Source of the DNA: Escherichia coli
GTDB lineage: Bacteria > Pseudomonadota > Gammaproteobacteria > Enterobacterales > Enterobacteriaceae
Length of the DNA: 64,000 nucleotides
Assembly (NCBI RefSeq): GCF_045037415.1
Contig: NZ_CP173438.1
Strand: one strand, 5' to 3'
In this document: positions 36,024 through 36,717 of the stretch, one piece after another
Numbering within the stretch: position 1 is the stretch's first letter
Layout: each line of letters starts with the position of its first letter
Translations under genes and position numbers: made by a program
The notes under the pieces: model-generated
What the model was told of the DNA's origin: nothing
The model's database searches: none
Seen by the model: the letters and a program-made list of their open reading frames with translations, nothing else

Positions 36024-36048
36024 AATAATACCGTTCTCTTTATAAAGT

Positions 36049-36088
36049 AAAACCCCCGAACTGGTAAGGAACGGGGGTTTTACTTTTT
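36049..36088. terminator. Rho-independent terminator after acpS
   Basis: AAAACCCCC stem, 15-nt loop, GGGGGTTTT then a T-run. Confidence 0.8.
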
Positions 36089-36443
36089 AACTTTAATTTT
36101 GTGCAGCACACGATTCCAACGAAAATGATTATGGATCAATTTCGTTGACCTGTACAAGCAACTTGCAATCTCTGACATAAAAAACGCGAGCCTTTACGAA
36201 GAAATCGACATTGATGAAAAGATTAACGTGACCGCTTTTTGATAAGTACATTAAAATCGGTTTCGTTATTGGCAATTTTGCTGTGCTTTACACCATGCCA
36301 CTGAATTCCCCCATTGAAACGAGTGGTGTCGTCAAAGCTCTGGTGTGGAGTGCAGCACTCGATTCCAATAACTCGCACGTTCAGTTTTGGGGAGATGTAA
36401 GGGCTAATCTGAACGGCTGCATTCCTTGTTTAAGGAAAAACGA

Positions 36444-36524
36444 ATGACTGATTGCCGATACCTGATTAAACGGGTCATCAAAATCATCATTGCTGTTTTA
36501 CAGCTGCTCCTTTTGTTCTTATAA
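36444..36524 (+). CDS. shoB: Type I toxin ShoB (26-aa hydrophobic membrane peptide)
   Basis: ATG..TAA ORF encoding MTDCRYLIKRVIKIIIAVLQLLLLFL, with GGA 9 nt upstream; too short for the ORF track; matches the recalled ShoB peptide in the acpS-yfhL gap. Confidence 0.85.
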   Translation: MTDCRYLIKRVIKIIIAVLQLLLLFL

Positions 36525-36546
36525 CACAAGGAAACGTACTTAAGGT

Positions 36547-36576
36547 GCGTCCGGTGAACCAATCGGACGCGCCTTT
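36547..36576 (+). terminator. Hairpin following shoB (probable shoB mRNA 3' end)
   Basis: GCGTCCG / CGGACGC stem with a 10-nt loop followed by GCCTTT. Confidence 0.5.
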
Positions 36577-36717
36577 AATAACTATAAATAAGTGTCTGGG
36601 CAGATACTATATAAATTAACTTAGTGAATGATTATGCTAATGTCATCATTTAAATAAATATAATAGCGTTAAGATTTCTCTATAAAATAATTAACACTCT
36701 ACTTCCAGAGCAGAATA

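Follow-up and report, generated by a model that had tools for sequence, protein, structure and literature searches.

The closest known system to the locus described here is the ShoB/OhsC pair of Escherichia coli K-12. Overproduction of the ShoB peptide is reported to be toxic in this strain (as cited in PMC5066626) and, according to later papers that cite Fozo et al. (2008), the full-length shoB transcript is untranslated and devoid of reporter activity, while a form with its 5' end 40–41 nt downstream is active (PMC5066626, PMC7708055). By analogy with tisB, translation of shoB has been proposed to depend on a standby ribosome (PMC5066626, PMC7708055), and one of these papers explicitly suggests the scheme of DinQ/AgrB (PMC5066626). 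For the antitoxin RNA OhsC a 19-nt pairing by its 5' end has been predicted (PMC3919570), and in K-12 RNase III is reported to cut in vivo within the region of this duplex (PMC6212723). A paper from 2024 noted variation in the pairing region and left open whether pairing is retained.

Other systems have much in common with this one. TisB/IstR-1 has the same divergent layout, an inert primary mRNA with a 5'-processed active form (+42 in tisB, +40/41 in shoB) and an antitoxin that pairs at a standby site; this site lies ca. 100 nt ahead of a ribosome-binding site (RBS) that is sequestered, and the duplex is cleaved by RNase III. It differs in lacking any sequence similarity to ShoB/OhsC and in its LexA control, absent at shoB, and the standby mechanism that was demonstrated for tisB is proposed for shoB. 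[quoted passage not shown] The leader of DinQ/AgrB contains four elements that form mutually exclusive structures, in which a 5' element masks the antitoxin site and, indirectly, the RBS. Here again the sequences are unrelated, and this leader scheme is for shoB a suggestion only. Hok/Sok resembles ShoB/OhsC in its small membrane toxin, its structured and processed mRNA and the cleavage of the duplex by RNase III, and an open frame in the shoB leader recalls mok. However, Sok is antisense to its target and hok is coupled to mok, whereas OhsC is encoded apart from its target. By analogy, the locus analyzed here would work like tisB/istR-1, zor/orz and dinQ/agrB, even though it is unrelated to them in sequence.

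We have analyzed a stretch of 64,000 nucleotides of E. coli (contig NZ_CP173438.1), referred to as the window, in which acpS (end at 36023) and yfhL (on the minus strand, end at 36718) are separated by a gap of 694 bp, 36024..36717. Our explanation, to which we give very high confidence, is that this gap is the ShoB/OhsC type I toxin-antitoxin locus. There is no counter-evidence to the identification, and the weak points concern the mechanism only. The locus is already known, annotated and published, i.e., nothing about its identity is new. The features are listed in Table 1. The initial annotation had proposed a 26-codon open reading frame (ORF) between acpS and yfhL as the toxin of this pair, and its coordinates proved exact, the translation being MTDCRYLIKRVIKIIIAVLQLLLLFL. 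It had also described a Shine-Dalgarno sequence ahead of the ORF and a hairpin after it, and both are there, the former as AAGGAA 6 nt from the ATG.

Table 1. Features of the acpS–yfhL region (positions in the window)
Feature	Position	Strand	Details
acpS	35643..36023	+	5' flank of the gap
Shared hairpin: OhsC terminator (-), probably also acpS terminator (+)	36040..36090		G+C-rich, 19-nt arms, 95% complementary
OhsC sRNA	36044..36120	-	77 nt, 5' end 36120; Rfam RF02495 ohsC_RNA; K-12 ncRNA ohsC, b4608
OhsC 5' seed (sRNA nt 1–20)	36101..36120	-	Complementary to the shoB leader
ohsC promoter	36128..36157	-	-10 CATAAT 36133..36128, -35 TTGTAC 36157..36152; promoter scan and motif positions
shoB promoter (sigma-70)	36228..36257	+	-35 GTGACC 36228..36233, -10 TAAAAT 36252..36257; promoter scan and motif positions
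shoB mRNA (predicted)	36264..36581	+	ca. 318 nt, 180-nt 5' UTR; start placed from the -10, end from the hairpin
5' arm of long-range stem over the OhsC target (predicted)	36265..36295	+	mRNA nt 2–9 and 16–32, pairing with nt 78–109
OhsC target in the shoB 5' UTR	36350..36369	+	75–94 nt upstream of the ATG
RBS hairpin (predicted)	36422..36437	+	TTCCTT 36422–36427 pairs with AAGGAA 36432–36437, ten nt downstream
shoB CDS	36444..36524	+	ATG at 36444, 26 codons, TAA 36522..36524; translation and K-12 match
shoB 3' hairpin	36537..36580		17-nt arms
yfhL	36718..36978	-	Other flank of the gap; convergent to shoB

The surrounding 2.8 kb are overlapped by 49 ORFs of 20 or more amino acids, so that an ORF of 26 codons is by itself nothing above chance. 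With short ORFs so plentiful around the gap, the frame could be a fortuitous one, with nothing in the gap but terminators and promoters that belong to the flanking genes. In addition, a scan of the 26-residue peptide against NCBIfam matched no family model; as Pfam scanning needs at least 30 amino acids, membership in ShoB was judged by direct identity. This identity is what refutes a chance frame, to which we give practically no probability. The peptide is hydrophobic (GRAVY 1.57) and shares 25 of its 26 residues with ShoB of K-12, I22L being the sole change. The gap was matched in 5,425 of the 5,426 complete E. coli genomes searched, always in the chromosome, and many of these chromosomes are 100% identical to it. 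In one of them (NZ_AP018784.2) the RefSeq gene order is recO, pdxJ, acpS, shoB, yfhL, yfhH, and the shoB CDS annotated there (WP_000128777.1, “type I toxin-antitoxin system toxin ShoB”) coincides exactly with the ORF of the window. The ORF is also preserved in six further Escherichia genomes, representatives at the species and genus level, with 23–26 of the 26 residues. The same reading is further contradicted by the strong Rfam match to OhsC and by the covariation of seed and target, both described below. Given its identity to K-12 ShoB, to the E. coli chromosomes and to the RefSeq CDS, we take the ORF as real.

The similarity to annotated shoB and ohsC called for in the initial annotation extends to the whole gap, which in K-12 likewise measures 694 bp and has 95% DNA identity to that of the window with its length unchanged, so that ohsC of K-12 (b4608) could be mapped onto it. 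K-12 MG1655 carries yfhL, shoB (b4687), ohsC and acpS, the mirror image of the order in the window (acpS, ohsC on the minus strand, shoB on the plus strand, yfhL on the minus strand), i.e., the arrangement is the same. Place, gap length, promoter hexamers, RBS, ORF length and the 3' half of OhsC are shared with K-12, and every defining feature of ShoB/OhsC that can be tested is present in the window. The differences are a block of 8 nt, a U.U mismatch, the I22L replacement, the ohsC -35 TTGTAC and a diverged, palindromic ohsC spacer. Outside the gap, acpS (35643–36023) is only 95.0% identical to K-12, whereas the more distant pdxJ and yfhH reach ca. 98%, which indicates that the segment acpS–shoB–yfhL is a diverged haplotype extending beyond the intergenic region.

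The antitoxin RNA had been expected on the minus strand, divergent from shoB, and it is found there. The covariance model RF02495 (ohsC_RNA) of Rfam matched over its full length (1–77) with 101.3 bits (gathering score 50) and an E value of 3e-17; the match was found again in a scan of the whole window, and the K-12 annotation mapped through the alignment gives the same 5' end, 36120. OhsC can thus be placed from the sequence, which the initial annotation had considered impossible. Of the interval 36100–36440 that it had offered instead, the first 21 nt of the RNA, with the seed, fall inside and the rest outside. The transcript sizes anticipated were also roughly right, closer for shoB (about 300 nt, with ca. 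318 nt predicted) than for OhsC (about 60 nt, as against 77–79 nt).

The predicted fold of OhsC has a 15-bp stem followed by UUUUACUUU, with a z score of -3.8 for the whole RNA. The hairpin to which this stem belongs was not flagged by a simple terminator scan, its loop being too long; standing just after acpS, it can, as modeled, terminate transcription from either direction. The promoter-like site of ohsC lies ca. 100 bp upstream, in divergent orientation to shoB, and ends 7 nt ahead of the 5' end of the RNA; its hexamers are those given in PMC11264685, where the TTGTAC variant occurs in 33% of genomes. The region around this promoter (36117–36157) is the part of the gap most diverged from K-12. 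It contains in the window allele a palindrome with 13-nt arms (CAACGAAAATGAT / ATCAATTTCGTTG) that spans the transcription start of ohsC and its -10, and the TTGTAC hexamer alters a half-site of CB2, a reported CpxR box, from GTAAA to GTACA.

Rfam gave further matches within the gap, to Thr and His leaders, STnc370 and microRNAs, which were rejected as chance, being below their gathering scores and located on the terminator hairpin. The scan of the whole window gave no other antitoxin RNA family above the gathering threshold. As far as antitoxin RNAs known to Rfam are concerned, this agrees with the earlier claim that shoB is the only toxin-like element of the window. The families found above the threshold were RyfD (2592–2730), a complete rRNA operon with tRNA and 5S (5728–10745), AsrC, the antisense of rseC (28804–29635), the rncO leader (32418–32632) and GlmY (45319–45466). 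As for annotation elsewhere, the RefSeq (PGAP) record of NZ_AP018784.2 (1501–2194, 100% identical to the gap) lists the shoB CDS and no ohsC RNA gene, while that of K-12 has both; OhsC seems to be generally unannotated beyond the reference strain.

The hexamers of the shoB promoter in the window are those in Table 2 of PMC11264685, and the ribosome-binding site AAGGAA is also as published. The predicted mRNA folds with a minimum free energy of -116.6 kcal/mol (z -6.6), and its length is free of indels among 11 Escherichia sequences. In both single-sequence and consensus folds nt 2–9 and 16–32 pair with nt 78–109, a stretch that includes the OhsC target, and in all folds the Shine-Dalgarno (SD) sequence is held in the RBS hairpin (unpaired probability 0.08–0.22). 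The consensus fold was computed from nine Escherichia sequences that are ca. 95% alike and show almost no covariation, i.e., the structure of the leader is an energy prediction; the pairs of the RBS hairpin are invariant in the nine sequences, hence they provide no covariation evidence. The predicted layout, in which a hairpin holds the SD and the first 32 nt form a stem with the target region, would be of the standby type. A third copy of the repeat described below (36283–36301, 68% identity) was considered as an extra OhsC target and rejected, since it corresponds to the 5' arm of the leader stem. At the other end, the 3' hairpin is followed by a short T run only and probably acts as terminator for both shoB and the convergent yfhL. 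Two Escherichia haplotypes exist for this hairpin (alignment columns 279–312), and two of its pairs are changed on both sides, which supports a conserved 3' stem.

The link between both RNAs is a direct repeat on the plus strand, GTGCAGCACACGATTCCAA at 36101..36119 and GTGCAGCACTCGATTCCAA at 36350..36368, identical in 18 of 19 positions. Because the first copy lies inside ohsC, which is transcribed in the opposite direction, OhsC can pair through its first 20 nt with the shoB leader. The predicted duplex of the window covers 20 positions with -34.2 kcal/mol, including a G.U pair at OhsC nt 1 and one U.U mismatch. It was calculated (RNAduplex) with the first 24 nt of OhsC, as the whole RNA gave long artefactual duplexes that unfolded the terminator. 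The mismatch is at duplex position 11, with A at 36110 in the ohsC copy and T at 36359 in the target. In the genome survey described below, 1,318 genomes matched the window with 99% identity or more across the two test pieces, a band that permits no mismatch over the 87 nt, and therefore the central U.U mismatch is probably the usual state of the window allele.

The comparison with K-12 showed that one and the same block of 8 nt, inside the 20-nt pairing region, differs in the OhsC seed and in the shoB target. In K-12 it reads TGCACCCT in both copies and in the window CACGATTC in ohsC and CTCGATTC in the leader, i.e., C[A/T]CGATTC. The predicted cognate duplexes have -34.2 (window with window) and -41.4 kcal/mol (K-12 with K-12), against -21.5 and -23.0 kcal/mol for the two mixed duplexes. 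As the same block was changed in both genes, each allele retains its own pairing, and duplexes formed across alleles are predicted to be poor. If the rules established for zor-orz are applied by analogy, the cognate duplex of the window (10+9) is expected to be functional and the mixed 5(4)11 duplex to fail. In the zor-orz case the different specificities belong to paralogues within one genome, while the shoB/ohsC locus is single-copy and its specificities differ from strain to strain as alleles, their discrimination being a prediction.

We have surveyed both types over 5,426 complete E. coli genomes with a 44-nt piece containing the OhsC seed and a 43-nt piece containing the target, neither of them long enough to seed on the other type. 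The K-12-like type was found in ca. 3,700 genomes and the window-like type in ca. 1,700. Counting genomes with both pieces, a window-type OhsC was accompanied by a window-type target in 1,687 and a K-12-type OhsC by a K-12-type target in 2,993, to which can be added 506 with a K-12-type target and a K-12 subtype of OhsC that has a G opposite U. The mixed combinations amounted to a single genome (window-type OhsC with K-12-type target) and none at all (K-12-type OhsC with window-type target), and a recheck of both with sensitive blastn gave again 1 and 0. The 28-nt exact word of megablast had left 713 K-12-type genomes with one piece only, a shortfall resolved by the subtype query and sensitive blastn. 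The sole mixed genome, strain Z1323CEC0015 (NZ_CP148423.1), is a recombinant with its joint between the two promoters, at about 36158–36171 of the window. Its window-type ohsC and K-12-type leader are predicted to form a poor duplex (5+11 bp, -21.5 kcal/mol).

This nearly perfect association of seed and target is by itself no proof of selection, since both sites are 249 bp apart and linkage is expected. What speaks for constraint, as read from the alleles, is the parallel replacement of the block together with the kind of discordance seen within each type, wobble pairs only. In the seven distinct seed/target combinations, both partners are changed at 5 of the 20 intermolecular pairs, and the cells are paired in 95.7% of cases, against 23–53% with a slid partner. 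Such covariation lends support to the pairing between OhsC and shoB, which had previously been only predicted. Gene conversion between the repeat copies was considered for the double change of the block and dropped, the changes being mostly transitions compatible with wobble. Because such transitions can pass via G.U, and two intermediates of this kind exist, stepwise compensation is sufficient.

Regarding the direction of the change, every readable Escherichia genome outside E. coli (E. albertii, E. whittamii and other GTDB species representatives, two of the representative genomes being labelled E. coli) has the K-12 type, and the window type is therefore the derived one. The complete scenario, in which this derived type would probably have been reached largely via G.U intermediates, and the shoB of Z1323CEC0015 would have escaped its antitoxin, is a tentative one to which we give somewhat less than even credence.

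The differences of the window allele could also be seen as signs of decay, the U.U mismatch and the altered -35 of ohsC meaning that control by OhsC has been lost or that shoB is silent. The duplex of the window is indeed 7 kcal/mol weaker than that of K-12 and interrupted at position 11, and the ohsC -35 is TTGTAC instead of TTGTAA. However, the duplex still pairs 19 of 20 positions with -34.2 kcal/mol, and for repression in zor-orz, a related system, 17 base pairs are enough even when discontinuous (PMC3919570). The 1,318 genomes that share this allele over both test pieces, together with an ORF, ribosome-binding site, promoters and leader that are all intact in the window, are also hard to reconcile with a decaying pair, and a change of the same block in both partners is what retained function predicts. 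We thus regard decay as very unlikely.

As to how the ShoB/OhsC pair would operate, the sigma-70 promoter at 36228–36257 is expected to drive an mRNA of ca. 318 nt with an unusually structured leader of 180 nt. The second, active 5' end (+40/41) reported for shoB (PMC5066626, PMC7708055) would fall near 36304 in the window. In the predicted fold, the loss of these 40 nt matters because the cut takes away the arm that masks the target region. Removal of this 5' arm would then expose the target, although in folds of the shortened RNA the opening is moderate: the unpaired probability of the target goes from 0.16 in the full-length fold to 0.34–0.45 once the 5' 40 nt are lost, a modest and partial opening. 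The exposed region may serve as a standby, i.e., loading, site for the ribosome until the RBS hairpin opens. OhsC bound to this standby site would block translation and mark the mRNA for RNase III. Any ShoB that were made would insert into the inner membrane and cause its depolarisation.

A different way of blocking translation, similar to that of Sok, can be imagined for the same leader. It contains a frame that runs from a GTG at 36283 or an ATG at 36295 to a TGA at 36447, and OhsC could act by blocking this frame, to which shoB would be coupled through the ATGA overlap with no need of standby. The OhsC target lies within this frame, and in all 11 Escherichia sequences compared no stop interrupts it between a point upstream of the transcript start and the ATGA overlap. 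Nevertheless, ca. 55 codons without a stop arise by chance in about 7% of cases, and these sequences are too similar to count as independent evidence. In addition, neither start has a Shine-Dalgarno sequence ahead of it, strain E69 has ATA in place of the ATG, every substitution observed in the frame is nonsynonymous, and both starts lie within the stem arm that is lost on processing at +40/41. Coupling to the leader frame is thus weakly supported and we consider it improbable, although less so than decay of the pair; pairing of OhsC at a standby site is the reading that we prefer.

The locus is an element of a kind that ORF tracks overlook, a toxin of 26 codons with an RNA as regulator. The covariation between alleles leaves its identity unchanged and adds only a little to a system already known. 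The literature search produced no further paper treating the variation of the pairing region, and in the one supplement of PMC11264685 that was searched neither the seed sequences nor the word “pairing” were found. The alleles offer natural compensatory-mutation evidence for the pairing of OhsC and shoB: a block swapped in both partners, discordances limited to wobble pairs, and one mixed genome in ca. 5,400. They also provide two pairs of alleles and a naturally mismatched combination that could be used as they stand for a direct comparison of specificity.
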